NCBI GenBank assembly: GCA_902761575.1
Contig: CACWKU010000002.1
Coordinates: 5,578-69,577 of the forward strand
Direction of reading: 5' to 3'
DNA from: an uncultured bacterium
Lineage (GTDB): Bacteria > Verrucomicrobiota > Kiritimatiellia > RFP12 > UBA3636
Length of the DNA stretch: 64,000 nucleotides
The notes below the pieces were generated by a model that was not told the DNA's origin, did no database searches, and saw only the letters and a program-made list of their open reading frames with translations. Shown here one piece after another: positions 38,430 to 62,773 of the stretch. Position 1 is the stretch's first letter. Each line of letters begins with the position of its first letter. Position numbers and translations under genes: made by a program.

Positions 38430-38456
38430 AAAATGTCGCCTGCCAGGCGACATTTT
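38430..38456. repeat. 27-bp perfect palindrome AAAATGTCGCCTG-C-CAGGCGACATTTT in the divergent intergenic region, ~92 nt upstream of the RhuM ATG
   Basis: Both 13-nt arms are exact reverse complements; A/T-rich ends. Confidence 0.8.
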
Positions 38457-38547
38457 CCCCGGGGCGTTGTGGCAGTCTATCCCCCGTTCCGCGGGAACAT
38501 CCCGCGATACATCCCCAAACCACCCCCCAAGCAGAAAGGATTCCCCA

Positions 38548-39030
38548 ATGCCAGAGCCCAATGGTTGTGAACCGGAAGAAGTCTCGCCGCCGCAAAAGAA
38601 CGAGATCGTCGTCTACCAGCCGGACGAAACGCTCCGGCTTGACGTTCGTCTCGAAAACGAGACGGTCTGGCTGACGCAGAGCCAGATGGGAACGTTGTTC
38701 GGATGCACCACGAGAAACGTGCGCCTCCACCTGGAAAACATCTACGCATGCGGCGAGTTGACGCCCGAGGCAACTAGGAAGGATTTCTTCCTGGTTCGCC
38801 AGGAAGGCGTCCGGCAAGTCCGAAGGATGGTGACGTGCTACAACCTCGACGCCATCATTTCCGTCGGCTACCGCGTGAATTCCGTGCTTGGAGTCCGGTT
38901 CCGCCAGTGGGCGACGACCGTTCTGAAGGAATACCTGATCGGCGCCTCCCTCAAGGACCTCGGCAAGAAGTGCTTCGGCTTCACAAAAATGGATCCCGCG
39001 GAAATCCCGGGCCTGAAGGCGCGGCTCTGA
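38548..39030 (+). CDS. RhuM-family protein (virulence RhuM family, commonly in mobile/defense islands)
   Basis: 160 aa; RBS AAAGGA then ATG 38548. ..ETVWLTQSQMGTLFGCTTRNVRLHLENIYACGEL..VRRMVTCYNLDAIISVGYRVNSVLGVRFRQWATTVLKEYLI closely follows the conserved RhuM core (..ETVWLSQ..M..LF..HYNLDAIISVGYRV.S..G.QFRQWAT.VLKEY). Confidence 0.8.
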   Translation: MPEPNGCEPEEVSPPQKNEIVVYQPDETLRLDVRLENETVWLTQSQMGTLFGCTTRNVRLHLENIYACGELTPEATRKDFFLVRQEGVRQVRRMVTCYNLDAIISVGYRVNSVLGVRFRQWATTVLKEYLIGASLKDLGKKCFGFTKMDPAEIPGLKARL

Positions 39031-39080
39031 CGCCCCTCGCCGGGCATTCGCCGTTTTGCATCTTCCGATCCCGGCCGCCG

Positions 39081-39149
39081 GGCGACTTGCCGACTTGCCG
39101 ACCCGTCGACTTGGTCCAAGTCGTCAAGTTGACTGGTTGCCAAGTCGCC
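39081..39149. repeat. Array of CGACTTG(C/G) / CAAGTCG motifs: tandem direct repeat, 17-bp palindrome, 11-bp palindrome and outer inverted repeat
   Basis: cgacttgc at 39083-39090 and 39091-39098; cgacttgg-t-ccaagtcg at 39107-39123; gtcaa-g-ttgac at 39123-39133; ggcgacttgcc at 39081-39091 versus gccaagtcgcc at 39139-39149. Confidence 0.7.
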
Positions 39150-47134: not shown

Positions 47135-49900
47135 ATGAAACCTTGGAAGCAAGTGGTCAAGCCCCACCGCGACGTGCTGGAGGGGGCCTTCACGCAGAGC
47201 GACTTCGCCGTGGACCTGATGAAGGTCGTGAACGGCGAGGCGCCGGCCGAATACCAGGACGCGCGGCTCTTCTTCGAGCGCACGTTCGTCACGCAGGGCA
47301 TCGCGGAACTGCTCGCGGCCGTGGCGGGGCGTCTCGCCGGCTCCGGCGGCCATCCCGTGATCGAGCTCAAGACGAACTTCGGCGGCGGCAAGTCGCACAC
47401 GCTGCTGGCGATCTGGCACCTGGCGAAGAACGCGGCGGACGCGCAGTCGCTGCCCGGCGTTGCGGAGGTCCTCGACAAGGCCGGAATCGGCGAAGTGCCG
47501 GAGGCGCGCGTCGCCGCAGTCGACGGCAACTACCGCGGGCCGGCCGAGCCGCGGCGCGAAGGAGGGCGAGTCGTCCGGACGCTCTGGGGCGACCTCGCGT
47601 TCCGGCTGCTGGGAGGCGCGGGCTACGACCTCGTGGCGGAAAGCGACGCGGCCGGGACGGCGCCGGGCAAGGAGAAGCTCGAAGCGCTTCTGCGCAAGGC
47701 CGCGCCGTGCGTGATCCTCCTCGACGAGCTCGTCGCCTACTACCGGCAGCTGGACAGGCCGGACCTGCCCGGCGGCTCCTACGACGCCAACCTCTCGTTC
47801 GCGCAGCAGCTCACCGAGGCGGTATCGAACACGCCCGGCGCCGTGATGCTCGCCACGCTCCCGCAGTCCGAGGGCGAAGCCGGCGGGGAATGGGGGAGCA
47901 AGGCGTTGCGCGAGGTGGGCAACGTCGTCCACCGGCTCGCCGCCACGTGGCATCCCGTCTCGCGCGACGAAAGCTTCGAGATCGTCCGCCGGCGCCTGTT
48001 CGAGCCGGTCGCGGACGAAGCCGCGATGCGCGAAACGTGCGAGGCGTACCGGGCGTTCTGCCACGAGAACCGGGCGGCGCTGCCGCGCGAGGCGCAGGAG
48101 GCGGCGTTCGTCGAGGCGTTCCCGAAATGCTATCCGATCCATCCCGAGGTTCTGTACCGCCTCTACGAGGACTGGGCGACCCTGCCCGACTTCCAGAAGA
48201 CGCGCGGCGCGCTGAAGTTCCTGGCGCTCGTCGTGCACCGGCTCTGGAAGGACCCCGGCTGCGACGAACCGCTGGTGATGCCGGGTTCGCTGCCGCTCGA
48301 CGCGTCCCCGGTCGCCAGCCAGGTCGCGCAGTGGCTCGTTAGCGGGAACTGGGGCCCGATCCTTTCCGCCGAGGTGGACGGCCCCGGCTCCGCGCCGGTC
48401 CGGCTCGACGCGGCCGACCCGCAGCTGGGCCGGCTGAAGGCGGCGCGGCGCGTGGCGAGGACGGTCTTCCTTGGGAGCGCGCCCTCCGTGTCCGGGCAGG
48501 CCGTCCGCGGACCCGACACGGCGCACGTACTGCTGGGCTGCGCGCGCCCCGGCGAGGAGCTATCCTTCTACCGCGACGCGCTCGACAAGATGGCGGACAC
48601 GTTCCGGTACCTCTTCCGCGACGGGGACCGCTACTGGTTCGACGTGCGCCCGAACCTCAACCGGACCGTCCACGAAAAGGCCGAGCGCGTTTCCGCGCGG
48701 GCCGTCGAGGAGGAGATCCGGTCGGCCTTCGACGCGAAATGGGGCGCCGGGCAGGCGCCGTGCGTCAACCACGCCCACGTCTTCGAGCCGGGGGCGAGGG
48801 TTCCGGACGACATCGTGTCGGGCCTGCGCGTCGTCGTCCTGCCGGCGGATTCGCCCTATTCGCCCCGGGCGGAGAAACCCGCCTTCGAGGCGGCGCGCGC
48901 GATCCTCGAATACCGCGGCGCGGCGGCGCGGACCTACAGGAACCGCCTCGTCTTCCTCGCGCCGGACTTCGATAAACTCGCCCGCGCCACCCAGCTCTGC
49001 CGGATGGTCGTCGCCTGGAGGGAGGCGGCCGAAGACATCGCCGCCAAGCGCATCGACGCCACCGTCGGCGAACAGGAGAACGCCGGCCGCCAGGCGCGGG
49101 TCCTCCGCGAATCCCTCGAACAGCTCGTGGGCGAAACCTTCTGCCATCTGCTCGTTCCGTCGATCGGGCCGAAGGGGCCGTCCGGCCCGTGCTCGTTCGA
49201 ACGGTTCGAAGTGCGCACGGCGCCCGTCGAACGGCTCTCGGAAACCGTCTCCCGCGCGCTCGTCTCGAACGAGATCGTCGTCGGGAACTGGGCCGCGCGC
49301 TTTCTCGGCGACCATCTTGGCGAAACCTATTTCGGTAACGCGGACGAAGTGTCCGTCCGCAAGGTCTGGGACGACATGGCGCGCTATCTCGACTACCGGC
49401 GCCTCGCCGACTTGGACGTGCTGCGCACCGCCGTCGAGAACGGCGTGCGCGACGGACTCTTCGGCTACGCTTCGGGAAAGAACGCGGACGGAAGCTACGA
49501 AGGATTCAAGTTCAAGGAACCGGTGATGGCGGGAGTCGGAGACCGGGATATCTTGATCAAGGCATCGAAGGCCGAGAAGGTTCAACCACCTCCGCCCCCG
49601 CCGCCTCCCGGTGGAGGCAAAGGACCGAAGCCACCGCCGCCGCCACCACCACCTCCTCCTCCTCCCAAGCCCGCTGGCAAGCGGAACTTCGCGGGCTCGG
49701 TGTCGCTGGACATTTCCGGCGACCTCTCTTCGTTCGACGAAATCCGGGACGACGTCCTCGCCCTCCTTGCCGGTCGTGGCCTGAACGCGAGCGTCCGCCT
49801 GGACATCCGCGCCGAAAGCGGCGAACCCTTCCCGCCCGACCTCCTCCGCGCCCTCAAGACCAACAGCCGCCTCCTGGACGAATCCTCACTCTCCTAACCT
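47135..49900 (+). CDS. DUF499-family ATPase (BrxC/PglY-like P-loop NTPase) with C-terminal poly-proline linker
   Basis: ATG 47135, 4 nt after the DUF1156 stop. MKPWKQVVKPHRDVLEGAFTQSDFAVDLMKVVNG.. is a typical DUF499 N-terminus. Walker A ..KTNFGGGKSHTLLAIWHL.., Walker B ..CVILLDELVAY... Pro-rich PPPPPPPGGGKGPKPPPPPPPPPPPPKP at roughly nt 49584-49668. Confidence 0.8.
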
Positions 49901-49925
49901 ACGGAGAGCGGACCGCACCCGCGAC

Positions 49926-49949
49926 GCGCTCGCCTTTCGGCGAGTGCGC
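49926..49949. terminator. GC-rich hairpin between the convergent DUF499 gene (+) and the 49979-50284 gene (-). Candidate bidirectional terminator
   Basis: gcgctcgcc-tttc-ggcgag(t)gcgc imperfect stem-loop, 26 nt after the DUF499 stop. No clear U-tract. Confidence 0.35.
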
Positions 49950-49978
49950 CGCAGACGCGAGGAATGGAAACCGATCCG

Positions 49979-50284
49979 TTAGGAACCCGGTTCCGGCCCG
50001 TCGGTCCACTCCAGCTCCGGCTCCAGTTCCCAGAACGTCTTGCCGTCGATGAGCGGCTCGGAGAGGAACGCCTTCATGGCTTCTTCGGACGTTTCCTTTT
50101 CCGTTTTCCAGACGAAAGTCCGGGCCGTCATGTCGTAGACGTCCATAAAGAAGAATTGCGGTTTTCCGTCTTCTCCCGGTTTGAACGTGCAGCCGTGGAC
50201 GAAATAGTCTTTGCCTTGGTACCGGACAAAGCCTTCGCCGTGTTCCATTTCTTCGAGGAAATCCCGAGTGTCAGCGTTTTTCAT
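49979..50284 (-). CDS. Hypothetical small protein (101 aa), lower-GC island
   Basis: MKNADTRDFLEEMEHGEGFVRYQGKDYFVHG..; ATG revcomp 50282-50284. Its first 14 nt overlap the end of the upstream gene (ATGAAAAACGCTGA). Confidence 0.5.
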   Translation of the reverse strand: MKNADTRDFLEEMEHGEGFVRYQGKDYFVHGCTFKPGEDGKPQFFFMDVYDMTARTFVWKTEKETSEEAMKAFLSEPLIDGKTFWELEPELEWTDGPEPGS

Positions 50285-50648
50285 GGAATTCGACTCCTTT
50301 CAGGTGTTGTTCGTATTCTTCGTAGAGTTTCTTCGGTCCCCATTGGGCTTCGCCTCTGTTTCCATCCGAAGTCCACTTGTGGTAGTGGAAGACTGGTTCA
50401 TAGCCGACCGACAGAGCGGGCTCGAACGTGTAGTCCAGATCGAAAAGCGGACGCCCGGTTGCTTTGTCGTAGATCCGCATTTGGCGAAACGTTCCGTCGG
50501 GACCGAACCGGATTCTGGCCTTTCCGTCCCGGGAAAAGAACGGGAGGTTGTGCTGTCCTCTCGTTCCTTCCACCACGACGACCTCCCCGATCTTTCCGAC
50601 GCCGAGGTAGTCCGAACTGCCGCGGGCACTGGAACTATTGCCTCCCAT
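50271..50648 (-). CDS. Hypothetical protein (~125 aa), lower-GC island
   Basis: Probable start MGGNSSSARGSSDYLGVGKIGEVVVVEG.. (ATG revcomp 50646-50648), overlapping the end of the DUF4417-like gene. The ORF-track 190-aa version has an Arg/Ser-rich N-terminal extension that looks non-coding. Confidence 0.45.
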   Translation of the reverse strand: MGGNSSSARGSSDYLGVGKIGEVVVVEGTRGQHNLPFFSRDGKARIRFGPDGTFRQMRIYDKATGRPLFDLDYTFEPALSVGYEPVFHYHKWTSDGNRGEAQWGPKKLYEEYEQHLKGVEFHEKR

Positions 50649-51270
50649 CGCCGACCTCCCTTCCGAAATAGTCGTAGGGCACGTAGATGATGGGGCCGCG
50701 CATTTCGGGAAACGGTTTCCCGAGACAGATGATCGCGCTCGGATCGAGCCGTTCCAGCATGGCGTCGTAGCCGTAGAGGTAGCCGGGCTTGTCGCGCCGA
50801 TTCCCGTTCGTCGTGACGGCGACCGGGGCGTTCTGTTCCACACCCAGGAAGCAGTAGCGAAGACTCCACCGCGAACCCCATCCGACGGACGGGATCACGT
50901 GAAGGCCCTTGCTCTGCCACCAGGCGCCGCACCAACGGTTCATGCCGATCGCCTCGATCATCTGCCACTCGCGCATCTCGCGGTAGCGCGAGAAGTCGGG
51001 GCTGAGAAGGAACCGGTACAGGGAGTAGGTCCCTAGGTTCGCCTCCACGTTGTTGCGGAACTTCCGGAAGCGCGTGTCGTCCACGAAGAAGTGGACGCCC
51101 TTCCGATAGTTCTCCGGCTTGTCCCGTCGACTCGTCCGCGAACAGGCCACGAGTCCGATGTCGCCATCGGGCAACGGCTCCCTGCGGATGATGTCGAACT
51201 GGAACTCCCCCACGCAGGGGAATTGGTCCCGAACGAAGTTCGGGTCTTCTCGCATTTGTTTGCTTGTCAT
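50635..51270 (-). CDS. DUF4417-like protein (tentative)
   Basis: 211 aa; ..VHFFVDDTRFRKF..YSLYRFLLSPDFS..WCGAWWQSKGLHVIPSVGW..; lower GC than the surrounding genome. The domain assignment is from memory and not verified. Confidence 0.4.
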   Translation of the reverse strand: MTSKQMREDPNFVRDQFPCVGEFQFDIIRREPLPDGDIGLVACSRTSRRDKPENYRKGVHFFVDDTRFRKFRNNVEANLGTYSLYRFLLSPDFSRYREMREWQMIEAIGMNRWCGAWWQSKGLHVIPSVGWGSRWSLRYCFLGVEQNAPVAVTTNGNRRDKPGYLYGYDAMLERLDPSAIICLGKPFPEMRGPIIYVPYDYFGREVGDGRQ

Positions 51271-51429
51271 TTCGGACTTTGTTGTTTGTATTCATGTGGA
51301 GGGGTCCATGAAGGTTGACTTTTGGGTCCGAAATGTGAGAGTATTGAGCGCGGTCCACTCTTGAATGTCCCACATTCCGGAGTCCCCCCCGCCGCCGGTT
51401 CCGCTGCAACGGTTCCGGCGGCACTTTTT

Positions 51430-51963
51430 TCATTGCGCACCCCTTTCGATCTTGCCCAGCTGGATGCGGGCGACCTCAAGGGACACGCCAAACTCTTCCT
51501 TGATGCGTTTGTCGGTCATTCCTGCGACCAGACGGCAGGGGGCCAGTAGTTCGGCGGCGAACTCGTTCGCCTGCCACTCCGGATCCTCGAAAGGGCGAAG
51601 CGAGGCTTTCCTGTTGCGACGGGCGTAGGCCACATAACTGTCTGGCACTTCGTCGGCGAGAAGCAGATGCCCGATCTCGTGCGCGATGGTGAACCGAGCG
51701 CGGGGATCGTCGGCAACTGCGGCTTCGTAGGTTGATTGTCGGATTTCAATGCGGTTCTCCTCGGGGATGGCCTGTGCATATTTGCCGGGAAGGTCTTCGT
51801 CCTCGACTACATCATAGACAAACCCCTTGATGATGCGAGGCATAGTCTGTTCAAGGAAGTCCACGACGTGAAAGTATCGTTCGGTGTCTAAACCGACCAG
51901 TCGACGAACATGACGAGCGATGAATCGGATTTCCTTGCGTGAAGTTGGGTTGTAGATGATCAT
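51430..51963 (-). CDS. ImmA/IrrE-family metallopeptidase (DUF955, HEXXH)
   Basis: Start MIIYNPTSRKEIRFIARHV.. (ATG revcomp 51961-51963); ..FTIAHEIGHLLLADEV.. HExxH zinc motif; ..ANEFAAELLAP... The start overlaps the stop of the upstream XRE gene (ATGA). Confidence 0.75.
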   Translation of the reverse strand: MIIYNPTSRKEIRFIARHVRRLVGLDTERYFHVVDFLEQTMPRIIKGFVYDVVEDEDLPGKYAQAIPEENRIEIRQSTYEAAVADDPRARFTIAHEIGHLLLADEVPDSYVAYARRNRKASLRPFEDPEWQANEFAAELLAPCRLVAGMTDKRIKEEFGVSLEVARIQLGKIERGAQ

Positions 51964-52331
51964 TTTTCTAGCTCCTTCAAAAAAGCGGAGATGAGGTTCG
52001 CATCGACCGCGTTGCCCTCCTGTATCTTGCGTGCGAATGCCACCACTGCTCGCCTGGAATCTGCGGAGAAGTTCGTAAGGTCCAAACGGACGCTGGTCGA
52101 GCTCTCGGCGATTGCGTTGGACAGTTCGGTTCGTTGCGCGGCATCGAGGTGGTAGTCGTCGGACAGTGTTTGCTCCCATCCTTCCGGCACGTGCTTGCGT
52201 CCCATCTCGACGGCGGAGAGGAACGCGGATGAAACGCTGAGTTTGTCGGCCATCGTCTTGAGTAGTTCGTTTCTATCGATTCTGAGTTTTCGCAAGAACC
52301 TTCCTAGCGGTGAAAGGGTTCGGGCGTTCAT
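51960..52331 (-). CDS. XRE-family helix-turn-helix transcriptional regulator, partner of the ImmA/IrrE peptidase
   Basis: Start MNARTLSPLGRFLRKLRIDRNELLKTMADKLSVSSAFLSAVEMGRK.. (ATG revcomp 52329-52331). Classic HTH_XRE N-terminal region. Translationally coupled to the ImmA gene. Confidence 0.75.
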   Translation of the reverse strand: MNARTLSPLGRFLRKLRIDRNELLKTMADKLSVSSAFLSAVEMGRKHVPEGWEQTLSDDYHLDAAQRTELSNAIAESSTSVRLDLTNFSADSRRAVVAFARKIQEGNAVDANLISAFLKELEK

Positions 52332-53006
52332 GGTTGGGTTCTCCTTCGGTGTTTCGCTTGGGTGGGCGAGGGGGCGCTTTGCTTTCTTTTGCTGTTTTGC
52401 TCTCAACGAGGGCGTAGACTAGCAGAAACACCCCTGCTTGTCAACCAGAAAAAGTTAAATTTTAAACCTATGCAGAACAATCGATTCTCAGCTAGGGATC
52501 AATCGGAGGACAGCCCCTTCAAGGTTCTCAAATGACCGCGACGCGGCGATACAACGTCGAATCGGCGCGCGGCCGGGGCAAGCATTCGTGGTTGACTTAT
52601 CCGTGTGAACAACGGCGGGAACACTGGCGGGCGGGGATCGGCCTGCATCGTCGAGCTCTTCGGGAGCGACGCGAACGGGCGGAAGATGATCGCGTGGGGG
52701 CGGCGGATCGGGTGCCGGGACGCAGGGCGCGGGTTCGAGCCCGGGCGCGGAGTCTACACACGGCTTCTGGTCGACGACGGCGACGTCCAGCAGCACAACT
52801 TCCTGATGGAGCTCGTCGACAACCCCGCCGGCCTCCGGGCGATCAATCCGGCGGAATGACCCCGCCACGCGTCGCGCGAAGCGCGGCGGCCAACGCCCTC
52901 CGTGGCGGGGTGCGGACCCCGCCACGCCTTCACATTTCCGGCGCGTGGCAACCGCCGTCGAGCGGAAGAAACTACCGGACGGGATGCGGATCGGGACGGG
53001 CGCGGA

Positions 53007-53741
53007 TCACTTCACGACCTCCCAATGACCGCCCTTGTCGGGACCGACGCGGCGGATGACGCCGGAGGCCTTCAGTCGGCTCAAATTCTTCTCTACGCCC
53101 CGAACGGAAAGTCCTGTCACGACCGCCAATTCGTTTTGTGTGGCGTGTGGATTCTCCGCCAAGTGGCGGATGATTTTCTCTGTACTTTTCTCCGCACTTT
53201 TCTCCACACCTTTCTCCACACCGGCAAGGGTGTTGGCGTCGAGACCGTAGTTGAGGTTCGGGAGTACCATGGTGAAACCCATCGCGCCGGAACTGAAGGT
53301 CGGCTTTAGAACGCGACCGCGCTTTTCGGATTCGAAGGCGTAGGCGTCGATGATTTTCCCGAAACCGCTTCCGCGGCGCTCCATCAGGTCCAGGCGTTGG
53401 AAAAGGTCGGCAATGACGGGGTTGCGACGCAGGGATGACACACGGCGCAAATCGGCGTTTTCGGCCGTCCTGCCGCTTGGCATGGCGCCCGGAGAAAAGA
53501 ACTCCATCCGGTCGTCGAAGATGTCGACGTGCAGTTCCCCGCCGAGTTCGAGGTAATCCCGGTGGATGAGACCATTGACGATGCATTCTTCGTAGGCGCG
53601 TTCGGGATACTCGGGGTATTCGATCCGCCGGTCGGGCGCCTTGCGCCACATCATCTTCGTGTTCGCGACGACGAACCTCTTCGCGGCCTTGAGAAGCGAG
53701 ATGAGCCCGCCGGAATACTCGTGGTCGTCGATGGCCTCCAT
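53007..53741 (-). pseudogene. 5'-truncated gene for a RecG-like/AlbA_2 family protein. Only the HATPase_c_4 and C-terminal winged-HTH part remains
   Basis: MEAIDDHEYSGG..YPEYPERAYEECIVNGLIHRDYLELGGELHVDIFDDRMEFFSPGAMP..RGSGFGKIIDAY.. then C-terminal HTH ..HATQNELAVVTGLSVRGVEKNLSRLKASGVIRRVG. The expected N-terminal AlbA_2 domain is absent; upstream frames give Arg-rich junk. Confidence 0.45.
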
Positions 53742-54008
53742 CACGCCGTTCGCTTTCGTGAGGCCCCGCCACCGGGTGCAGAACACGCGCGAATGCCGTC
53801 TTCCAGTTTCACGGGATTCCTGTGTTCCGGCCGGCGGACAGCTCCGCATTGCCGTTGACGGCTCCGATGATAGCACACCGCCTTCGCCGGGACAACCAGT
53901 CGCGCGAGAGCGCGGGAACCGAGGCGGGCGCTGCGCAAATCAGGATACCGGACGGGGACGGCTGTCGAGGAATCCGATCAGGGCGGCGGGGGCGGCTTGC
54001 CCGGGCAA

Positions 54009-56927
54009 TCAGCGGAGGATGAGGAGCGTCGGGAGGATGCCGGCGGATTCGTAGCAGCCGATGTCGATCGTCCGGACGACGCGGGGGTTGCCCGCGAGGT
54101 CGAGGTCGACGGGCGACGCCATCTCCGAGCCGGCGTCGACGGTCGGGGAGGTCTCGACCGGACGGAAGCCCTTCCGGACCCTGGTGGCCCCGGCGACCAT
54201 CTCGAGTCCGTCCGGAAGCTCCGAATCCGCCGCGCAGGTCACGAAGCTCGCGTAGGCGCCGGGCAGGCGGTCGGCATAGGTTTCCGTCCAGTCGTCGGCG
54301 AAGAGCTTCCGTCCGCTCGCCGTCCCCGTGTTGCGGTGGAAGAGCGTGTTGCGGACGACCGGATTCTGGTTCGCGGCGGCCGCGGGGAAGAACAGCACGG
54401 GATAGAAGTTCCCCTGGTTTCCGAGCCCGCGGTTCTCGGCGAGGGTGCAGTTCTCCATCAGCGTGCCGGCGCCGCCGAGGAAGACGGCCGAGCCGACGGA
54501 GTCGTTCGTCGTCGCGTTGTAGGCGACGAGCGACTGGCGGAGGATGCCGCCCGCCATGTGGACGGCCGCGGCGCCGCCCCAGGTCCCCAGCTTGACGGAC
54601 CGGTCCTCCGCGACGTCGCTCCAGTTGCGGGTCGCGAAGTTGTTCGTGATCACGCAGTGCGTGACGAGCCCCTTCGCGGACAGGCACGCGATGCCGGCGC
54701 CGCTGGACTGCGTCTTCGGCCAGCCGCCGCCGAAGGCGAACATCGCCGCGTTGCGGACGATGCAGTTCTCCACGGTGCCGCCGTTCGCCTCGATGAGGAT
54801 GTTGCCGCCCTTCTCGTCCTTGTAGCCGCCAATCCGGCCGCGTTCGACGGCGAGGCCGGAGAGGACCGCGCCCTCGTTGTCGAGCACGAAGACGCGGTGG
54901 GCGTCGACGGCGGCGGAATTGCCGGCGTTCAGCGTCTCGGGCCCCGCCACGTTGCGCACGACGACGTCCTCGGGGTTGCCCGTGTCGCCGGCGATCTTGA
55001 CCGCCTTGTCCACGACGACGGCCTCGGAGACCGCGTACAGGCCCGGCAGCACGCAGATGCCGTCGCCGTCCTCCGCGACGTCCACGGCGTGCGCGATCGT
55101 CGCGAACGGGGCCTCGCGCGTGGTGCCGGCGTTGGCGTCGCTGCCCGACGGGGAGACGTACCAGTCGAACGAATCGGCTACGGACTTGGTCGTGAAGGAG
55201 CCCGACATCGTCACGCTCTGCGGGACCTGCGCGTCGTTTTCGACCCGGAGCGCCCAGTAGTACTTCGTCGAGGCCGTCAGGTTGGTGATCTCGAAGGAGA
55301 AGCCGGTCGCCGCGCCCGCGACGACGAGCGCCGGCGTGCCGATGCGATTCTCCCGCCTGTTGTACGCGAAATAGACGTCGCAGGACGTGGCGAGGTTGTT
55401 GCCGACGTCGAAGATCGTGCCGGAGATCGTCGCCGTCGTCGTGCCGGGCGCCACCGCCACCGGGTCGAGATCCGGCGCCGTGGGGGGGCCGCGCCAGTAG
55501 GTCGCGGCGACGATTCCGCTCGGCTCCCGGCCCTCCTTGAAGGCGCGGGCCTTGAACGTCGTCGTGGCGGTGAGGGCGATCGGCTCCACATAGGCGGCGC
55601 TCGACTCCGTCGGCTCGGTGCCATCGGTCGTGTAGCGGATCGTCGCGCCGTCCGTCGTGCACGAGAGCTCCACGGAGACGCCCGGGTAGAACATCGTGCC
55701 CGGGGCCGGGGAGAACGCGGGGTCGTCCGCCGGGCCGGGCTCGTCGGGGTCGTATTCGCAGCAGCCGATGTCGACCGCGGCGCCGACGACGCGCGGGTTG
55801 CCGGCGAGGTCGAGCCCGACGGGGGACTGCATCCCGGCGCCCGCGTCGACGACCGAGGAGCCCGGGGCCGGGCGATAGACCTTGCGGAACCGGAAGCCCG
55901 AGTCCACCATCGCGAGGCCGTCCGGGAGGTCCGAATCCGTCGCGCAGTGGTCGAACCGCCCGTAGGCGTTCGCCAGGGCGGCGGCGGGAAAGCCCGCGAC
56001 CCAGGCGTCGGCGAAGAGCTTGCGGCTGCCCGCGGTCCCGACGTTCCCGTAGATGAGCGTGTTGCGGACGATCGGGTCCATGGCCACGACGTTCTGCGCC
56101 GCGAAGAACACGGGATAGAAGTCGCCCGCGTCGCCGAGCCCGCGGTTTTCGAAGACGGTGCAGTTCTCCATCAGCGTGCCGCCGTTGCAAAGGAACACGG
56201 CCGAGCCGTAGGCGTCGTTCGTCGTCGTGTTGTACGCGACGAGCGACTGGCGCAGGACGCCGCCCGCCATGTGGACGCCCGCCGCGCCGCCCTGCTGCCA
56301 GAAGTTGAAGCCGAGCCCGCAGCGGGTCGCGAAGTTGTTCGTGACGACGCAGTGCGTAACGAGGCCGTTCGGGGAGAGGCAGGCGATGCCCGCGCCGCCG
56401 CTGGCGGTCTTCGGGTATCCGCCGGCGCCGATGGAGAAGATCGCCGCGTTGCGGAGGATGCAGTTCGTCACCGTGCCGCCCTTCGCGTCGATCAGGACGT
56501 TTCCGCCCGTGCTGTCGCGCAGGCCGCCGATGCGGCCGCGCTCGGCGGTGAGGCTGGAGAGGACCGCGCCGGCGTTGTCGAGGACGAAGACGCGGTGGGC
56601 GCCGACGGACGGGGAGGCGGTCGCGTCCAGCGTCTCGGGACCTTTCGTGTTGCGGACGACGACGTCGGCCGGGTCGCCCGTGTCTCCGACGACGGCCACC
56701 GCGTTGGTCACGGCGACCGCCGCGGAGACCGCGTAGGTGCCGGCGAGCACGCGGACCGTGTCGCCGTCCTGCGCGGCGTCCACGGCGCGGGCGATCGTCG
56801 CGAACGCGGTCGCGCGCGTCCGGCCGTCGGCAGCATCGCTGCCCGCCGTGGAGACGTACCAGTCGGCCGCGGGGGCGGCCGCGGCGGCAAGGGCGAGCGT
56901 TGCGATCAGGTTCCTGGCGGCGTTCAT
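54009..56927 (-). CDS. Secreted protein made of two tandem copies of a beta-helix plus chitobiase-C/Fn3 unit (internal tandem duplication). Tail ..AGILPTLLILR
   Basis: MNAARNLIATLALAAAAAPAADWYVSTAGSDAADG.. signal. Second copy begins ..FDWYVSPSGSDANAGT... The two halves are colinear at protein level and alignable by eye at DNA level; (V)DIGC(C)YE ends both copies. Confidence 0.85.
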   Translation of the reverse strand: MNAARNLIATLALAAAAAPAADWYVSTAGSDAADGRTRATAFATIARAVDAAQDGDTVRVLAGTYAVSAAVAVTNAVAVVGDTGDPADVVVRNTKGPETLDATASPSVGAHRVFVLDNAGAVLSSLTAERGRIGGLRDSTGGNVLIDAKGGTVTNCILRNAAIFSIGAGGYPKTASGGAGIACLSPNGLVTHCVVTNNFATRCGLGFNFWQQGGAAGVHMAGGVLRQSLVAYNTTTNDAYGSAVFLCNGGTLMENCTVFENRGLGDAGDFYPVFFAAQNVVAMDPIVRNTLIYGNVGTAGSRKLFADAWVAGFPAAALANAYGRFDHCATDSDLPDGLAMVDSGFRFRKVYRPAPGSSVVDAGAGMQSPVGLDLAGNPRVVGAAVDIGCCEYDPDEPGPADDPAFSPAPGTMFYPGVSVELSCTTDGATIRYTTDGTEPTESSAAYVEPIALTATTTFKARAFKEGREPSGIVAATYWRGPPTAPDLDPVAVAPGTTTATISGTIFDVGNNLATSCDVYFAYNRRENRIGTPALVVAGAATGFSFEITNLTASTKYYWALRVENDAQVPQSVTMSGSFTTKSVADSFDWYVSPSGSDANAGTTREAPFATIAHAVDVAEDGDGICVLPGLYAVSEAVVVDKAVKIAGDTGNPEDVVVRNVAGPETLNAGNSAAVDAHRVFVLDNEGAVLSGLAVERGRIGGYKDEKGGNILIEANGGTVENCIVRNAAMFAFGGGWPKTQSSGAGIACLSAKGLVTHCVITNNFATRNWSDVAEDRSVKLGTWGGAAAVHMAGGILRQSLVAYNATTNDSVGSAVFLGGAGTLMENCTLAENRGLGNQGNFYPVLFFPAAAANQNPVVRNTLFHRNTGTASGRKLFADDWTETYADRLPGAYASFVTCAADSELPDGLEMVAGATRVRKGFRPVETSPTVDAGSEMASPVDLDLAGNPRVVRTIDIGCYESAGILPTLLILR

Positions 56928-57001
56928 CGTGTGTTCCTCGTGGGCGGTGGTGGGAAACGGCTACGGGGCGAATCCTACCACGCGCGGGAACGCGCCGGAA
57001 A

Positions 57002-57047
57002 CTACACAACCGTGTAGTGGCCCGTTCCCGGCCGGTTCTGCTAGAAT
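57002..57047. promoter_or_regulatory. Divergent promoter region with the 16-bp palindrome CTACACAACCGTGTAG (57002-57017) and extended -10-like TGCTAGAAT (57039-57047) only 7 nt before the kinase ATG
   Basis: The same palindrome plus flank (CCGAAACTACACAACCGTGTAG..CCCGTT..CCGGCC) recurs at 38311-38350 upstream of the 33826-38231 gene. The CTGCTAGAATCG 12-mer recurs at 22362-22373. Confidence 0.5.
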
Positions 57048-57054
57048 CGTCCGC

Positions 57055-59154
57055 ATGAAACGCTTCCTGGTCCCGCTGCTCCTGCCGTGCGCGCTGGCGT
57101 CCGCCGCGCCGGACGGCGTCCTGCGCACGGCGCGGGAGGTCAACGAGTTCCTCGAGCGCGGGCACGGGAAGACGAACTACGTGCTCTCGGTCCAGGTCAT
57201 CAACGACCCGGCGGACACCGCGATGATCGTCCGCGACGAGACGGGCCGGACCGCCGTGCCGAACCAGAATCCGGTGGCGGGCCTCCGCAAGGGCGACCTG
57301 CTGGAGATCCGCGGCTTCGCCTCCGTCAACGAGAACGGCGAGACCTGGATCCAGCCGATGGAGGTGGAGAAGCGCGGGAGCGCGCCCGCGCCGGGGCCGG
57401 CCGACATGGGCCTCGCCGAGCTGAACAGCCCGGAGAACGCCTGGCTCCCGGTACGCGTCTCGGGCACGGTCTTCAGCGTCACGCCCGACGAGTTCGACGA
57501 CGATTTCGTCGTCGCGATGCTCTGCGACGGCGAGGCGACGACGCCCGTCGTCCTGTCGCGCAAAGTCTACGAGCGATCGAAGGTCGAGCCCGACGCGACG
57601 ATCCGCCTGACGGGGTGGTACTGGCGGTCGTTCAGCGGCATCCGGAAGTTCACGGGCCCCGGCGTCGTCCACGACCCGGCGACGCCGGTCGAGATCCTCT
57701 CGCCCCCGCCGGCCGACCCGTTCGCGGCGCCGCCGCTCGAGCGGCGCTTCTACCGCACGCCGGAGGAGATCGCGCGGATGGGCCCCCGGACGGTCGCCGG
57801 CCGCGTGATCGCCGTCTGGGGCGAGGGGAACCTGATGGCGAAGGACGCGGACAACCGCGTCGTCAACGTCACGATGATGGAGGGACAGCCGGTCCCGCGC
57901 CTGGGCGAGGCCGGCACGTTCGTCGGGTATCCCTACACGGACCTGATGCGCGTCAACCTGATGCGGGCGCGCTTCCGGCCCGGCGACTTCCCGGAGACGC
58001 CCGAGGACGCCCCGGAGGACGTCTCGGCGCAGGAGCTGCTCGCCGGAAACCTGCTCACGACGAACGACATCTGGCTCGTCACCTGCCACGGAAGGCTGCT
58101 CCGCCTGCGCGGGACCGTCCGCAGCCTGCCGGCGGAGGAGAGCCCCGACCAGCGCCTGTACCTCGACTGCGACGGTCGTCCGGTGCCCGTCGACATCGGC
58201 TCCTGCCGGGAGGTCGCGAGGCGGACGCCCGTCGGCGCCGAGGTCGAGGCGACCGGGCGGTGCCTGCTCGAGACGGACAGCTGGCGCACGGACAACGTCT
58301 TCCCCCACGTCCGCGGGTTCGCGCTCGTCGCGCGCACCGCCGAGGACGTCCGCGTGACGAAGCGCCCCTCGTGGTGGACGCCGAAGCGGCTGGCGCGCGT
58401 CGTCGGGCTTTCGCTGGCGGGGCTCGTCGTCGCGCTCGCCTGGATCGTCGCGCTCCTCCGGCTCGCCGAACGCCGCGGTCGGGCGCTCTACCGGTCGCGG
58501 CAGACGGAGGACGCGGAGCGCCACGCGCGCGAGATCGCCGAACTGCGGATGCGGGACCGCACGCGCCTCGCCGTCGAGCTGCACGACACGATCTCGCAGA
58601 ACCTCACCGGCGCGACGATGCAGATCGGCACCGCCGCGCAATTCGTCGGGACCGACGCCGCGCGGGCGGTCCGCCACATCGACATCGCCACGCGCACGCT
58701 CGACGCCTGCCGCGAGGAGCTGCGCAACTGCATCTGGGACCTCCGGAGCAACACGCTCGACGAGAAGGACCTCGCCGCGGCGGTCCGTCGGACCGTCCAG
58801 CGGCTCGTCGGCGACGCCCGCCTGGACATCCGGTTCGACGCGCCCCGGGAGAAGATCTCGGACAACGCGGTCCACGCGCTGCTCAACATCGTGCGCGAGC
58901 TCGCGGCCAACGCCGTCCGCCACGGCGGCGCCTCGGTCGTCCGCGTCTCCGGCTCGCTCGAGGACGGAATGCTCTCCTGCGCGGTCGAGGACGACGGCTT
59001 CGGGTTCGACCCCGACGACCGCCCCGGCCTCGCCGAAGGGCACTTCGGGCTCCAGGGGGTCGAGGAGCGCGTCGACGAGCTCGGCGGCGAGCTCTCGATC
59101 CGGAGCCGGAAGGGCGAGGGGACCCGGGTGAGCTTCCGGATCCGGGCCGAATGA
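57055..59154 (+). CDS. Sensor histidine kinase (HisKA_3/NarX-DegS type) with large periplasmic sensor domain and one TM helix
   Basis: ATG 57055; signal/TM MKRFLVPLLLPCALASA; TM LARVVGLSLAGLVVALAWIVALL; H-box ..RTRLAVELHDTISQNL..; HATPase ..IVRELAANAVRHGGAS..VEDDGFGFDP..GLQGVEERV..GG. Confidence 0.85.
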   Translation: MKRFLVPLLLPCALASAAPDGVLRTAREVNEFLERGHGKTNYVLSVQVINDPADTAMIVRDETGRTAVPNQNPVAGLRKGDLLEIRGFASVNENGETWIQPMEVEKRGSAPAPGPADMGLAELNSPENAWLPVRVSGTVFSVTPDEFDDDFVVAMLCDGEATTPVVLSRKVYERSKVEPDATIRLTGWYWRSFSGIRKFTGPGVVHDPATPVEILSPPPADPFAAPPLERRFYRTPEEIARMGPRTVAGRVIAVWGEGNLMAKDADNRVVNVTMMEGQPVPRLGEAGTFVGYPYTDLMRVNLMRARFRPGDFPETPEDAPEDVSAQELLAGNLLTTNDIWLVTCHGRLLRLRGTVRSLPAEESPDQRLYLDCDGRPVPVDIGSCREVARRTPVGAEVEATGRCLLETDSWRTDNVFPHVRGFALVARTAEDVRVTKRPSWWTPKRLARVVGLSLAGLVVALAWIVALLRLAERRGRALYRSRQTEDAERHAREIAELRMRDRTRLAVELHDTISQNLTGATMQIGTAAQFVGTDAARAVRHIDIATRTLDACREELRNCIWDLRSNTLDEKDLAAAVRRTVQRLVGDARLDIRFDAPREKISDNAVHALLNIVRELAANAVRHGGASVVRVSGSLEDGMLSCAVEDDGFGFDPDDRPGLAEGHFGLQGVEERVDELGGELSIRSRKGEGTRVSFRIRAE

Positions 59155-59179
59155 ACGCCTTCACGCGAAAGGGAATCCA

Positions 59180-59800
59180 ATGGAGAAGACCAAGGTGCTG
59201 GTCGTCGACGACCACGCGATCGTCCGGATGGGGATAGTCGCGCTGCTGAACGCGCAGCCGAACCTGGAGGTGGTCGGCGAGGCCAAGAACGGCGAGCTCG
59301 GCGTCAAGGCCGCGAACAAGCTGAGGCCCGACGTCGTCGTGATGGACATCCTGATGCCCGTGATGGACGGCGTCGAGGCGACCCGCCAGATCGTCGCCTC
59401 GCGGCCCGGGGCGAAGGTGCTGGTCCTCACCACCTCGACCACGGCCAGCGAGCTGGCGGCGGCGCTCGAGGCCGGCGCGACCGGCGTCATCCCCAAGACG
59501 ACGGGCAACGCGGCGCTCCTCGCCGCCGTCCGTTCCGTCGCCGCGGGAAGGCGCGTGGTGACGAGCGAGATCGAGGAGATCATCGCGAGCGACGAGCCCG
59601 CGCCGAACCTGACGCAGCACCAGCTCGACATGCTCGCGTCGATCGTCCGCGGCCTCACGAACGCGGACATCGCCCTGCAGTTCGGCATCTCGGAGAACAC
59701 CGTCCGCAAGGCGACCTCGACCATCTTCGCGAAGCTCGGCGTCGCCAACCGCACCGAGGCGACCGCGATGGCCCTTCGCAAGGGCCTCGTGAAGCTCTGA
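59180..59800 (+). CDS. LuxR/NarL-family response regulator
   Basis: Receiver VLVVDDHAIVRMGIVALL..DVVVMDILMP; C-terminal LuxR HTH LTQHQLDMLASIVRGLTNADIALQFGISENTVRKATSTIFAKLGVANRTEA. Confidence 0.9.
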   Translation: MEKTKVLVVDDHAIVRMGIVALLNAQPNLEVVGEAKNGELGVKAANKLRPDVVVMDILMPVMDGVEATRQIVASRPGAKVLVLTTSTTASELAAALEAGATGVIPKTTGNAALLAAVRSVAAGRRVVTSEIEEIIASDEPAPNLTQHQLDMLASIVRGLTNADIALQFGISENTVRKATSTIFAKLGVANRTEATAMALRKGLVKL

Positions 59801-59866
59801 GCGCGCGGACCATCACCCGTCCGTATAGTTGCCAGAAAGACCGGAATCGGGTAGAACAGGGACCGT

Positions 59867-62002
59867 ATGCAACGCGTTCTCCCGCTTCTTCTGGCGCTCG
59901 CTCTCCTCGTTCCGGCCGCCGCCCCGGCCGACGAGGCGGCCGGCGGGGCCGTCCTTCGCTCCATCGCGGAGATCGACGCCTTCACCGCGGACGCCACGCC
60001 CCGCAAGGTCCCCTTCGAGGTGACGGGAAGGGTCGTCGGGGCCTTCGTTCTGCCGAAGGCGGCCGAAGTCGTCCTTTCCGACGATTCCGGCACGCGCATG
60101 TCCTTCTACCGGGACCTCGGCCTGCCGCGGCCGGAGCCGGGCGAAACGATTGCGGCGAGCGGCGTCGCCAACATGAGCGCGGAACACGAGCCGTACGTCC
60201 TCCTCGAGGACTACCGCGTCCTCGGGCGCGGCCCGCGCCCCGAGCCCGTCGCCGTGCGGCTTCCGGCGTTGAACGCCCGCGAGCACAACCTAGCGGTCGT
60301 CCGGACGGAGGGCACCGTGGCCGACGCCTTCCCGGACGAGGTCGACCGCCGGTACACGATCCTGCTTCTCGAGGACGGGGGCGTCGTCGTCCCCGTCTCG
60401 TTCCCGCGGGACGCCTTCGGCGACCGGCGGGACCTCGTCGACGCGCGGATCCGCGTGACCGGCGTCTATCGCCGGAACGTCGAGGGCGTCCGCAAGTACT
60501 CCTGGCCGAACATCGCCCCGTCCGCGCCGGAGGACATCGAGGTCCTCGAGCCGCCGCCGGCGGATCCGTTCTCCGCCCCGCCCCTGGAGAGCCGCCTCTA
60601 CCTCACGTCCGGCGAGATCGCGCGGATGTCGCGGCGGTCCGTCTCCGGCGAGGTGCTCGCGACCTGGTCGGGCGACCGGGCGATGCTGCGGACCGCGGAC
60701 GGGCGGATCGTCAACCTCACCCTCGCGCACGGCGTCGCGCTCCCGCCGTGCGGCGAAACGGTCGTCGCCGCCGGCCGACCCGAGACGGACCTCTTCCGCA
60801 TCAACCTCGCGGCCGCGCGCTGGAAGGCCGCCGCGCCGCGGCCGCCGGCGGCGGACGAGGAGGCGGCGGACGCCGCGGCCGCGTTCTGGGACGACGAGGG
60901 GCTGCACTCCATCAACGCGCAGATCCACGGGACGCTCGTGCGCGCTCGCGGCGTCGTCCGGACCCTGCCGTCCCCCGGCGACCCGGACCTGCGCTTCGTG
61001 CTCGACGCCGGCGACGCGTCGATCCCCGTGGACGTGACCTCCAACCCCGGCATCGCCGACGGTCTCCGGATCGGCAGCGAGGTCCAGGCCACCGGCCGGT
61101 GCATCCTGCTCACGGATCCCGGGCGGCGGGACTACGACTCGGCGAAGGTCCACGGCGTCGCGCTCGTCCTCCGCTCGCCCGCCGACCTGGTCGTGCTGCG
61201 GCGCGCGCCGTGGTGGACCTCTGGCCGGCTGATGGCGGTGATCGCCGTGATGCTGGCCGTGATCGCCGGCGGCCTCGTCTGGAACCGCGCCCTGCGGAAC
61301 CTCGCGGACCGCCGCGGACGCGAGCTCTACCGCGAGCAGGTCGCCCACGCCGTCGCGGAGTTCAAGACCGACGAGCGCACGCGCCTCGCCGTCGAGCTTC
61401 ACGACTCGCTCTCGCAGGCGCTCTCCGGCGTCGCCTGCCACCTGGCGGTCGGCGCAGGGTCCTTCGAGGCCGACCCCGCGGCCGCCGTGCGCTGCCTCGA
61501 GACCGCGCGCAAGATGCTCGACTCCTGCCGCACGGAGCTGCGCCAGTGCCTCTTCGACCTGCGCAGCGACACCCTGGAGGAGCGCGACTTCGCCGTCGCG
61601 ATCCGCAAGACGCTCGAGCAGCTCGACGACTACGCCGAGCTGGCGATCCGGTGCGACGTCCCCCGCCAGATCCTCCGGGACACCACCGCGCACGCCATCC
61701 TCTCCATCCTCCGCGAGCTGACCGGCAACGCCATCCGCCACGGCGGCGCCACCCGGATCGAGGTCGAGGGCTCCGTCGAGCCGGACCGCATCGTCTTCAC
61801 GGTCCGCGACAACGGCTCCGGCTTCGATCCGGCGGCCTGCGTCGGCCCCGCGCAGGGCCACTTCGGCCTCGAGGGCGTCCGCAACCGCCTCGCGAAGCTC
61901 AACGGCGTCTTCACGATCGAATCGGCGCCCGGCGCCGGGGCGACCGCCGTCGTGACCATCCCCCTTCCCGCCGCCCGGGCGCAGGAGACCCCGCAACCAT
62001 GA
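59867..62002 (+). CDS. Sensor histidine kinase, paralog of the 57055-59154 kinase (same architecture)
   Basis: MQRVLPLLLALALLVPAAAPA signal; TM LMAVIAVMLAVIAGGLVW; ..RTRLAVELHDSLSQAL..; ..ILRELTGNAIRHGGAT..VRDNGSGFDP... The periplasmic region is colinear with the first kinase (..PPPADPFSAPPLE..). Confidence 0.85.
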   Translation: MQRVLPLLLALALLVPAAAPADEAAGGAVLRSIAEIDAFTADATPRKVPFEVTGRVVGAFVLPKAAEVVLSDDSGTRMSFYRDLGLPRPEPGETIAASGVANMSAEHEPYVLLEDYRVLGRGPRPEPVAVRLPALNAREHNLAVVRTEGTVADAFPDEVDRRYTILLLEDGGVVVPVSFPRDAFGDRRDLVDARIRVTGVYRRNVEGVRKYSWPNIAPSAPEDIEVLEPPPADPFSAPPLESRLYLTSGEIARMSRRSVSGEVLATWSGDRAMLRTADGRIVNLTLAHGVALPPCGETVVAAGRPETDLFRINLAAARWKAAAPRPPAADEEAADAAAAFWDDEGLHSINAQIHGTLVRARGVVRTLPSPGDPDLRFVLDAGDASIPVDVTSNPGIADGLRIGSEVQATGRCILLTDPGRRDYDSAKVHGVALVLRSPADLVVLRRAPWWTSGRLMAVIAVMLAVIAGGLVWNRALRNLADRRGRELYREQVAHAVAEFKTDERTRLAVELHDSLSQALSGVACHLAVGAGSFEADPAAAVRCLETARKMLDSCRTELRQCLFDLRSDTLEERDFAVAIRKTLEQLDDYAELAIRCDVPRQILRDTTAHAILSILRELTGNAIRHGGATRIEVEGSVEPDRIVFTVRDNGSGFDPAACVGPAQGHFGLEGVRNRLAKLNGVFTIESAPGAGATAVVTIPLPAARAQETPQP

Positions 62003-62619
62003 GCAAGATCCGAATCCTTCTCGCCGACGACCACATGCTGATGCGCATGGGCATCGCGACCCTCGTCTCGACCGCCAAGGACATGACGGTCGTCGGCGAG
62101 GCCTGCAACGGCCGCCAGGCCGTCGAGCTCGCCGGCTCGCTCCGGCCCGACGTCGTCATCATGGACCTGATGATGCCCGAGATGTCCGGCGGGGAGGCGA
62201 CGAAGGCCATCCACGCGGCGCACCCCGGGATCAAGATCGTGATCCTCACCACCTACGGCACGTCGGCGGAGCTGGCGACGGCCGTCACGAACGGCGCCGT
62301 CGGCGTCCTGCTGAAGGACAAGGTGGAGATGGACCTGCTGAACACCATCCGCTTCGTCGTCGAGGGCAACCAGGTGATCCCCACCCGGCTGCTCGCGCAG
62401 ATCGAGGAGGACAAGGCGATGGGCAAGCTCACGGACCGCCAGATGGAGATCCTGGCCTCCGTCGCGGAAGGCCAGTCCAACGCCGACATCGCCCTGCAGT
62501 TCGGCCTCTCGGAGATCACCGTGAAGAAGCACCTCTCCGCGATCTTCGAGCGCCTCGGCGTCGCCAACCGCTCCGAGGCGGTCGCCCTCGCCTTCCGCAA
62601 GCAGATGCTCAAGGCCTGA
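61999..62619 (+). CDS. LuxR/NarL-family response regulator, paralog of the 59180-59800 regulator
   Basis: ATG overlaps the kinase stop (ATGA). ILLADDHMLMRMGIATLV..DVVIMDLMMP; LTDRQMEILASVAEGQSNADIALQFGLSEITVKKHLSAIFERLGVANRSEA. Confidence 0.9.
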   Translation: MSKIRILLADDHMLMRMGIATLVSTAKDMTVVGEACNGRQAVELAGSLRPDVVIMDLMMPEMSGGEATKAIHAAHPGIKIVILTTYGTSAELATAVTNGAVGVLLKDKVEMDLLNTIRFVVEGNQVIPTRLLAQIEEDKAMGKLTDRQMEILASVAEGQSNADIALQFGLSEITVKKHLSAIFERLGVANRSEAVALAFRKQMLKA

Positions 62620-62620
62620 T

Positions 62621-62639
62621 CCCGCGCCGCCGGCGCGGG
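62621..62639. terminator. GC-rich stem-loop (cccgcgc-cgccg-gcgcggg) 2 nt after the response-regulator stop, between convergent genes. Candidate bidirectional intrinsic terminator without U-tract
   Basis: 7-bp perfect stem with a 5-nt loop. The downstream gene is on the opposite strand and ends at 62774. Confidence 0.4.
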
Positions 62640-62773
62640 GCCCGCTCGGCTCCGATGGAGGCGTTGTCGTTCCCGCGGCAGGGACGCGCCCGCGGCGCGT
62701 CCGTCGTTCGGGCGTTCCGCGGAACCGCCAGTACCGTGTCGCGGCTGCGGAAAGAGGGAGAGAGGGGGGCGCG

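Follow-up and report, generated by a model that had tools for sequence, protein, structure and literature searches.

What is the GC-poor stretch of DNA that lies beside a defence operon in an uncultured bacterium of the Kiritimatiellia, and what might it do for the cell that carries it? The DNA analysed here, referred to as the window, is a 64,000-nucleotide (nt) stretch of contig CACWKU010000002.1 (assembly GCA_902761575.1). A first-pass annotation of this sequence had delimited a module at 49900-53900 and considered it a decayed prophage-like or conjugative element, or else a second defence-associated module. We find that the low-GC stretch is a discrete, intact and horizontally mobile cassette of five genes, located at the edge of a variable defence hotspot. 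As for its role, we lean towards a stress-switched toxin/neutraliser module of phage ancestry.

A discrete five-gene cassette

The accessory DNA covers positions 49975-52468. Its GC fraction is 0.571 versus 0.687 in the rest of the window; none of 616 sliding windows of this length has a lower value (mean 0.684, standard deviation 0.031, z about -3.7), and the tetranucleotide distance is also largest here (0.47 versus a mean of 0.22, standard deviation 0.06). The low-GC segment that had been reported by eye at about 49.96-52.5 kb is therefore real. The compared contigs and loci are designated by L numbers. In L001, L002, L005, L011-L013 and L022 the blastn homology to the window is confined to 49975-52468 and the flanks are unrelated, as expected of an accessory module that moves horizontally; across this stretch the identity to L001, L002, L005, L011 and L012 is 80-92%. 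The features of the cassette are the following.

49975-52468, minus strand: the whole mobile five-gene cassette, delimited by blastn homology and GC content
52406-52434, minus strand: putative sigma-70-type promoter of the XRE gene, TTGACA-17 nt-TAGTCT, conserved in the alignment of the window, L001 and L005
51960-52331, minus strand: XRE-family helix-turn-helix (HTH) repressor, 123 amino acids (aa); Pfam HTH_31, E 1.8e-4
51430-51963, minus strand: ImmA/IrrE-type M78 (COG2856) zinc metallopeptidase with the motif HEIGH, 177 aa; Pfam Peptidase_M78, E 5.6e-12
51271-51429, minus strand: conserved intergenic control region, with conserved arms and variable centres in the alignment
50635-51270, minus strand: DUF4417 protein, 211 aa, the constant component of the cargo; Pfam PF14386, E 1.3e-30
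50271-50648, minus strand: f125, 125 aa, the variable component of the cargo; family defined from homologues
49979-50284, minus strand: f101, 101 aa, the strongly acidic (isoelectric point 4.4), hypervariable partner of f125; family defined from homologues

All five genes are intact and their lengths match those of the homologues, which speaks against a decayed element. No integrase or phage gene is found inside 49975-52468. An Rfam scan of 49.5-54.2 kb gave no match. A 10-nt direct repeat, CCGCGACGCG, occurs in the spacers that bracket the cassette (49919-49928 and 52536-52545), but it was not accepted as an attachment (att) site or target duplication because about 0.1 such match is expected by chance.

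The regulatory half was correctly recognised at first sight as a translationally coupled pair. The XRE start at a conserved AAGGAG followed by ATG gives a protein of 123 aa rather than the 148 aa of the maximal open reading frame (ORF), and a protein of exactly these 123 aa is already on record. The start of the M78 gene overlaps the XRE stop by a 4-nt ATGA. Peptidase_M78 is the only Pfam domain of the peptidase, which also matches the capP model of PADLOC (E 4.8e-15), the match being confined to the peptidase part (profile positions 35-144 of 242). The putative XRE promoter was missed by a consensus scanner because its -10 hexamer agrees with the consensus at only 3 of 6 positions. The control region between the M78 and DUF4417 genes, about 160 nt long, contains a GC-rich hairpin (51391-51422) and two palindromes, GAATG-N5-CATTC (51363-51377) and TTCATG-N10-CATGAA (51291-51312). 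The hairpin shows compensatory changes in L011, and the region may be an operator or an attenuator.

An alignment of DUF4417 was used to scan species-representative genomes, and hidden Markov models (HMMs) built from the small proteins were used to locate f125 and f101. The scan yielded 485 confirmed DUF4417 loci. The best 80 of these 485 belong to Kiritimatiellae, Lentisphaerae, many Clostridia, Bacteroidales, Phascolarctobacterium, Erysipelotrichaceae, Flexilinea and one alphaproteobacterial metagenome-assembled genome (MAG), and all 80 come from the gut or rumen. Linkage was counted in the loci with enough sequence (73, or 72 for M78). f125 directly follows DUF4417 in 71 of the 73 loci and f101 comes after it in 66; an M78 gene lies upstream in at least 48 of 72. 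As in the window, all genes of the homologous loci are on the same strand.

The same five genes recur in differing neighbourhoods (purD/purN, hisHF, proS/HU, RNA polymerase genes, a Type I restriction-modification locus). One Kiritimatiellae MAG, RGIG3480, carries two divergent cassettes (L022 and L026) whose DUF4417 proteins are 86% and 62% identical to that of the window. The copy in L001 is inside a Type I restriction-modification locus and the one in L186 has DpnII and PIN genes next to it. Integrases do not figure among the frequent neighbours; one copy, in L186, adjoins a tyrosine integrase. We also note a truncated f125 (110 aa) with an f101 (112 aa) in the Bacteroidales contigs L016-L018 (7627-8339), with neither DUF4417 nor a regulator. 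Genes for a Type ISP restriction enzyme and an ATPase_2 protein adjoin the pair, which is an apparent cassette remnant in another defence island.

In at least 8 loci the XRE and M78 genes are missing and a Fic_N-Fic-winged HTH (wHTH) protein is encoded at the upstream position on the same strand. In other words, the core consists of the three downstream genes, and the regulators upstream of it can be exchanged.

The three cargo genes

The DUF4417 protein matches PF14386 with 106.7 bits against a cutoff of 28.9, over profile positions 30-175 of 183. Its AlphaFold2 (AF2) model (mean confidence score, pLDDT, 87) has an alpha/beta fold. The invariant residues include C43, H60, D64, D65, D92, S94, R112 and E189, together with several tryptophans, and are located at strand ends of the model. 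No relative was found in the PDB by Foldseek comparison or profile search, and the searchable literature mentions DUF4417 solely as an uncharacterised domain that is fused to ParB-CTPase folds.

The f125 protein of the window begins with MGGNS. The consensus of the family is MGGRG, and 71 of 92 bacterial f125 sequences start in this way. The AF2 model (pLDDT 89) is a meandering beta-sheet preceded by a disordered N terminus (residues 1-10). H88 and H90, which form an HxH motif, do not vary in the family, and P36, Y45 and R58 hardly vary. The two small proteins are of opposite charge: the median isoelectric point is 9.2 for f125 and 4.4 for f101, the latter having a net charge of about -10.

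Neither small protein gave a match in single-sequence scans against Pfam, PHROGs, NCBIfam and PADLOC, and Pfam scans of 40 f125 and 28 f101 family members (PHROGs too for the 40) pointed to no consistent family. Word-indexed searches recovered 5 relatives of f125 and 11 of f101. Profile searches of both against PDB sequences found nothing, and the family and PDB searches detected no relatives of f101 outside its own family. In Foldseek comparisons of DUF4417 and f125 with the PDB no hit had E < 0.09, and there were only weak TIM-barrel-like, MORN-like and single-layer-sheet likenesses.

Three candidate identities of f125 were rejected. A resemblance to the toxin domain Ntox50 had no Pfam match in support. 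Long multi-stretch matches of the f125 profile turned out to be WD40-like repeat proteins (DGTIRIWD..TG), i.e. a motif-level artefact and not homology. Reading the H-hydrophobic-H motif as that of an HUH endonuclease was dropped: the predicted sheet is all-beta, and no Rep or TnpA structure was matched.

The three genes are tightly coupled. They overlap in the window as had been described, except that both overlaps (DUF4417/f125 and f125/f101) are 14 nt, the second having been given as about 13. The DUF4417 stop is separated from the f125 start by exactly 1 nt in 55 of 76 loci, and in most loci the overlap of f125 with f101 is 4-14 nt. In-frame fusions are also found, one of DUF4417 with f125 in a Kiritimatiellia MAG (P0050/L027) and one of f125 with f101 at the canonical position (P0235/L186).

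The conservation of the cargo follows the order of the genes: the mean pairwise identity is 62% for DUF4417, 50% for f125 and 33% for f101. Among pairs of loci whose DUF4417 proteins are more than 80% identical, f125 ranges from 34 to 100% and f101 from 22 to 100%. It is conspicuous that f101 varies together with f125 when DUF4417 is controlled for (partial rho 0.45, permutation p 5e-4), whereas it does not vary with DUF4417 when f125 is controlled for (partial rho 0.006).

The two loci L037 and L049 show this pattern along the DNA. From XRE through M78, the control region and DUF4417 to approximately nt 36 of f125 their identity is 92-100%, it falls to 30-70% over the remainder of f125 and over f101, and it returns to 93% just after f101, which indicates that the pair was swapped as a module. 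Extra copies of f125 and/or f101 occur in 12 of 73 loci, up to a total of three pairs (L040). Some of these copies are preceded by a 3' remnant of DUF4417 (e.g. in L019), and in the second cassette of RGIG3480 a DUF4417 remnant of 45 aa precedes an additional, tandem f125/f101 pair. Co-variation, swapping, tandem copies and opposite charge are signatures of a cognate effector/neutraliser pair under diversifying selection. The small proteins may thus be said to behave genetically as the toxin/immunity-type pair that had been guessed at, with f125 as the presumptive toxin.

Another example of variation is L004 (ENA ERZ1037953 scaffold_27399), which is 100% identical to the window over the cassette DNA and has an in-frame 87-nt deletion inside f125. 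The homology of this contig (window 48852-52075) breaks at 48852, inside HmaC. Beyond the break the contig has genes for rubredoxin and a lectin as well as purD and purN, none of which the window contains; L004 is either a strain variant or an assembly chimera. We count the deletion in support of our reading, as a hint that f125 may be costly to its host.

Flanks of the cassette

The DNA on either side contains the following features.

39500-49899, plus strand: Hma operon block; PADLOC matches to HmaB and HmaC
52858-52927, no strand assigned: hairpin and direct repeats with 11-bp perfect stems, in the conserved flank downstream of the AlbA_2/HATPase_c_4 gene
53007-53876, minus strand: remnant of an AlbA_2/HATPase_c_4 and wHTH gene; matches to Pfam HATPase_c_4 and HTH_24 only

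HmaB and HmaC are encoded at 44176-49897 according to PADLOC. The Hma block is found at 93% identity in five contigs (L190-L194), where the homology ends at window position 49899 and is followed by unrelated DNA with no cassette. Hma and the cassette are thus separate modules, and the comparison also shows that the cassette genes are not components of the Hma operon. The idea that the XRE/ImmA pair regulates the neighbouring defence operon does not hold, because the pair has a three-gene cargo of its own, the cassette is convergent with Hma, and Hma occurs without it. Between the convergent HmaC and f101 genes, outside both mobile modules, there is a GC-rich hairpin, GCGCTCGCC-TTTC-GGCGAGTGCGC (49926-49949), which is likely to be a bidirectional terminator.

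On the other side, the close relatives L187 and L188 are about 98% identical to the window over 53798-64000, and 52555-53798 is 93% identical in L187. Past 52555, the place of the cassette and Hma is taken in the relative by a Wadjet-like DUF2398/SMC/DUF2399 set and a RhuM gene. The replaced stretch is 39173-52554 in the window and 14982-22266 in L187, and homology resumes near 38932-39172. The comparison of synteny with close relatives, which had been proposed as a check, therefore defines the borders of the insertion, and the Wadjet-like set at the same site identifies about 39.2-52.55 kb as a variable defence hotspot. Judged by these alignments, the cassette is one of two independent inserts in it.

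The repeats described in the first-pass annotation are exactly where they had been placed, with GACCCCGCCACGC at 52858-52870 and 52915-52927 and CGTGGCGGGG at 52901-52910. The repeat has 5 matches (at most 1 mismatch) in the window versus 0.86 expected, and an exact-pattern scan of Joint Genome Institute (JGI) metagenomes for the flank hairpin found nothing. The AlbA_2/HATPase_c_4 gene is indeed truncated at its 5' end: L187 encodes an intact protein of 468 aa, of which the remnant matches residues 202-468 at 98% identity. A deletion with its junction at 53798 has removed about 589 bp from the 5' part, and the reading frame of the native GTG at 53812 now soon meets a stop codon. The remnant also differs from the L187 gene by one unit of a GVEK tetrapeptide repeat (12-nt tandem repeat, 53170-53230). 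Both the repeats and the truncated gene evidently belong to a flank that is conserved in the relatives and not to the cassette, so the accessory module is limited to 49975-52468 instead of extending to 53900.

Farther away, a plus-strand ORF of 1583 aa occupies 34279-39030, and its last approximately 115 residues match PDC-S05 and PDC-S23, models of candidate systems in PADLOC (E down to 1e-48).

Phage relatives, candidate function and known systems

The complete cassette is nearly absent from mobile-element collections. It was found in 1 of 50,697 phage records (L102, MT835546.1, labelled UNVERIFIED 'Bacteriophage sp.') and in 1 of 2.9 million viral contigs, and no f125 was found in the plasmid collection. 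MT835546.1 encodes HPr, ComM-like, MATE, holB-like and other housekeeping-type proteins and looks like a fragment of a bacterial chromosome. A prophage or integrative and conjugative element (ICE), as first suspected, is hard to reconcile with these figures and with the lack of an integrase inside the cassette.

DUF4417 alone is present in 492 phage records; cluster A mycobacteriophages (as gene 1) and streptococcal phages (in ParB-fused genes) account for most of them. In viral contigs it is located between late regulators or helicases and the large terminase. It is conspicuous that 52 of the 57 viral loci with distinct DUF4417 sequences (among L104-L183) contain one to three same-strand ORFs starting with MGG[RKNC]G, in which the leader is followed by a Gly/Ser-rich stretch and then by unrelated C termini. 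In 39 of the 57 such an ORF begins at most 25 nt from the DUF4417 stop, while the reverse-strand control gave 0 of 2202. In Mycobacterium phage Alma, gp1 is DUF4417 and the following gp2 (L185, 1051-2109) starts with MGGRGGASG and has a C-terminal HELGH peptidase-like domain.

One phage clade (phrog_9479 type) is homologous to full-length f125 (hhalign probability 99.1%, E 1e-18) and has kept both the leader and the HxH motif. Three phage proteins in BFVD match the f125 model (E 1.6e-4 to 4.7e-4, TM score 0.53-0.55), one of which is named 'minor capsid protein'. In two clearly phage contigs examined (L106 and L180) the f125-like gene is not followed by an acidic f101-like partner, which fits the notion of f101 as an antidote of the host. 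No description of the MGGRG leader association or of the cassette was found in the searchable literature.

Taken together, we consider the cassette, with moderate confidence and largely by analogy to known switches, to be a switch-gated toxin/neutraliser conflict module of phage ancestry, expressed under stress and of the abortive-infection or toxin-antitoxin type. XRE would repress the cassette. A stress or infection signal (possibly DNA damage, by analogy with ImmR/ImmA and CapH/CapP) would cause the peptidase to cleave XRE, and its removal would allow the cargo to be expressed. f125, together with DUF4417, would be the harmful effector that f101 neutralises stoichiometrically, and the module would then act as an abortive-infection or toxin-antitoxin-type conflict system.

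Several observations weigh against this reading. The Foldseek and profile searches of the PDB revealed no recognisable catalytic fold in any of the cargo proteins, and PADLOC (2023) has no model for the cargo. DNA damage as the trigger rests only on analogy, because the ImmA-like protein is without the GAF domain of CapP and is encoded on the same strand as its presumed target. Many copies are found among housekeeping genes and not in evident defence islands, defence genes being a minority of the immediate neighbours. Errors of assembly or sequencing could account for the fusions, each of which is from a single contig, and for the deletion in f125. Finally, a fusion of f125 to f101 is unusual for a toxin-antitoxin pair and would fit a two-subunit complex equally well.

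An unlikely competitor is a selfish three-component addiction module of the Xre-COG2856-toxin kind, retained because its loss is harmful and without any anti-phage role. Such modules were predicted by Makarova et al. 2009 (PMC2701414), and the patchy, multi-copy distribution, the many copies among housekeeping genes and the basic/acidic protein pair are what one would look for in them. On the other hand, the window copy and several others are in defence hotspots, a constant, enzyme-like DUF4417 and homology to phage proteins are not features of classic toxin-antitoxin pairs, and module swapping with tandem extras points to diversifying selection over simple addiction.

The phage loci suggest another explanation, which we regard as doubtful: DUF4417 and the MGGRG leader may form a phage device that tethers or loads variable cargo at the packaging or head machinery, the bacterial cassette being a captured copy. 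When switched on, such a copy would load a harmful MGGxG protein into the particles of the invader or compete with its cargo, and f101 would protect the host. The frequent and close MGG[RKNC]G ORFs with their empty control, the Alma gene pair, the terminase neighbours, the leader of f125 and its match to a phage 'minor capsid protein' all agree with this explanation. However, the leader could be a mere linker for translational coupling or a recombination site, and nothing in the fold of DUF4417 suggests a loader, ligase or protease. A bolder proposal joins this idea to our favoured one. We offer it tentatively and would sooner expect it to fail, although we rate it above either of the two alternatives just described: DUF4417 and the leader would be an unrecognised two-part phage system in which DUF4417 acts on, tethers or loads a changing range of leader-tagged cargo (peptidase-like, f125-like and other proteins) at the packaging or head machinery, and bacteria would have domesticated it under a stress switch, with f101 added as the antidote, in order to poison or sabotage the phage or the infected cell.

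Quite improbable is an interbacterial polymorphic toxin-immunity locus, in which exported f125 would kill competitors and f101 would confer immunity. The constant-plus-variable layout, the co-varying downstream partner and the tandem, 'orphan'-like pairs recall such loci, yet f125 has no recognisable secretion or trafficking domain, signal peptide or LXG, WXG, Rhs or MuF domain, Pfam finds no domain in it or in 40 family members, secretion-system genes are not among the neighbours, the architecture is identical in Gram-negative and Gram-positive lineages, and a cytoplasmic stress switch better fits self-directed action. We find it scarcely credible that the cassette is what decay has left of the immunity region of a prophage or ICE, even if XRE/ImmA pairs are classic switches of such elements, DUF4417 and f125 have phage homologues and the L186 copy adjoins a tyrosine integrase, since the five intact genes recur alone in more than 70 loci across phyla, integrases are uncommon neighbours and the mobile-element collections hold only the two records mentioned above, the phage one bacterial-looking.

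The cassette is of interest in several respects. It is widespread in the gut and rumen and joins three families without known function, two of which have no Pfam, PHROG, NCBIfam or PADLOC model. Its mobility, hotspot locations, exchangeable regulators, swappable pair and tandem extras make it a testable candidate for a new anti-phage or toxin-antidote system. Moreover, the association with the MGGRG leader opens a first way to approach the function of DUF4417, including that of hundreds of well-studied mycobacteriophages (cluster A genes 1 and 2).

With respect to known systems, the regulatory half is of a known kind, whereas the cargo and the leader that it shares with phages are undescribed. 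The closest parallel of the regulators is ImmR/ImmA of ICEBs1 and phage phi105, with which the pair shares an XRE-HTH gene, an overlapping gene for a short (about 170 aa) HEXXH peptidase of the M78/COG2856 type and a single transcription unit; presumably the logic is also shared, with a peptidase that would cleave the repressor under stress. ICEBs1 uses a divergent promoter. The pair of the window, in contrast, is outside any ICE or prophage, in a cassette without integrase, and has a same-strand cargo of three genes.

CapH/CapP, which regulates cyclic-oligonucleotide-based anti-phage signalling systems (CBASS) and other immune operons (Lau et al.; Calloji et al. 2026), is similar in that an HTH protein and an M78 peptidase are associated with conflict operons, and the window peptidase matches capP. 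CapP has HTH and GAF domains and a cysteine-switch loop, and capH/capP are upstream of their operon on the opposite strand (bioRxiv 10.1101/2022.04.27.489752). The peptidase of the window, at 177 aa, consists of the peptidase domain alone, and its gene runs in the same direction as the cargo; it differs from CapH/CapP in these two respects. In architecture and mobility the cassette fits the three-component modules predicted by Makarova, Wolf and Koonin (2009, PMC2701414), which are mobile, patchily distributed operons of Xre, COG2856 and a presumed toxin. Their known partners are the toxins PIN and RelE, whereas the cargo here is no known toxin: it is DUF4417 plus two families without a Pfam model, and the acidic partner is encoded separately.

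Polymorphic toxin-immunity loci (Rhs, CdiA-CT/CdiI, MuF; PMC5576092) share with the cassette a constant region, a swappable module, a co-varying partner and tandem extras. Phage ancestry is a further likeness, as the f125 fold matches part of a phage 'minor capsid protein'. The cassette differs in that it has no secretion or MuF domain, its parts are usually separate, coupled ORFs, and it is controlled by XRE/ImmA or Fic-wHTH.

The leader has a parallel of its own. Internal proteins of phage T4 carry a capsid-targeting sequence, a short N-terminal peptide on unrelated, fast-evolving proteins encoded near head and packaging genes. The likeness to MGGRG is one of layout; there is no sequence similarity, and T4 has no DUF4417 partner.

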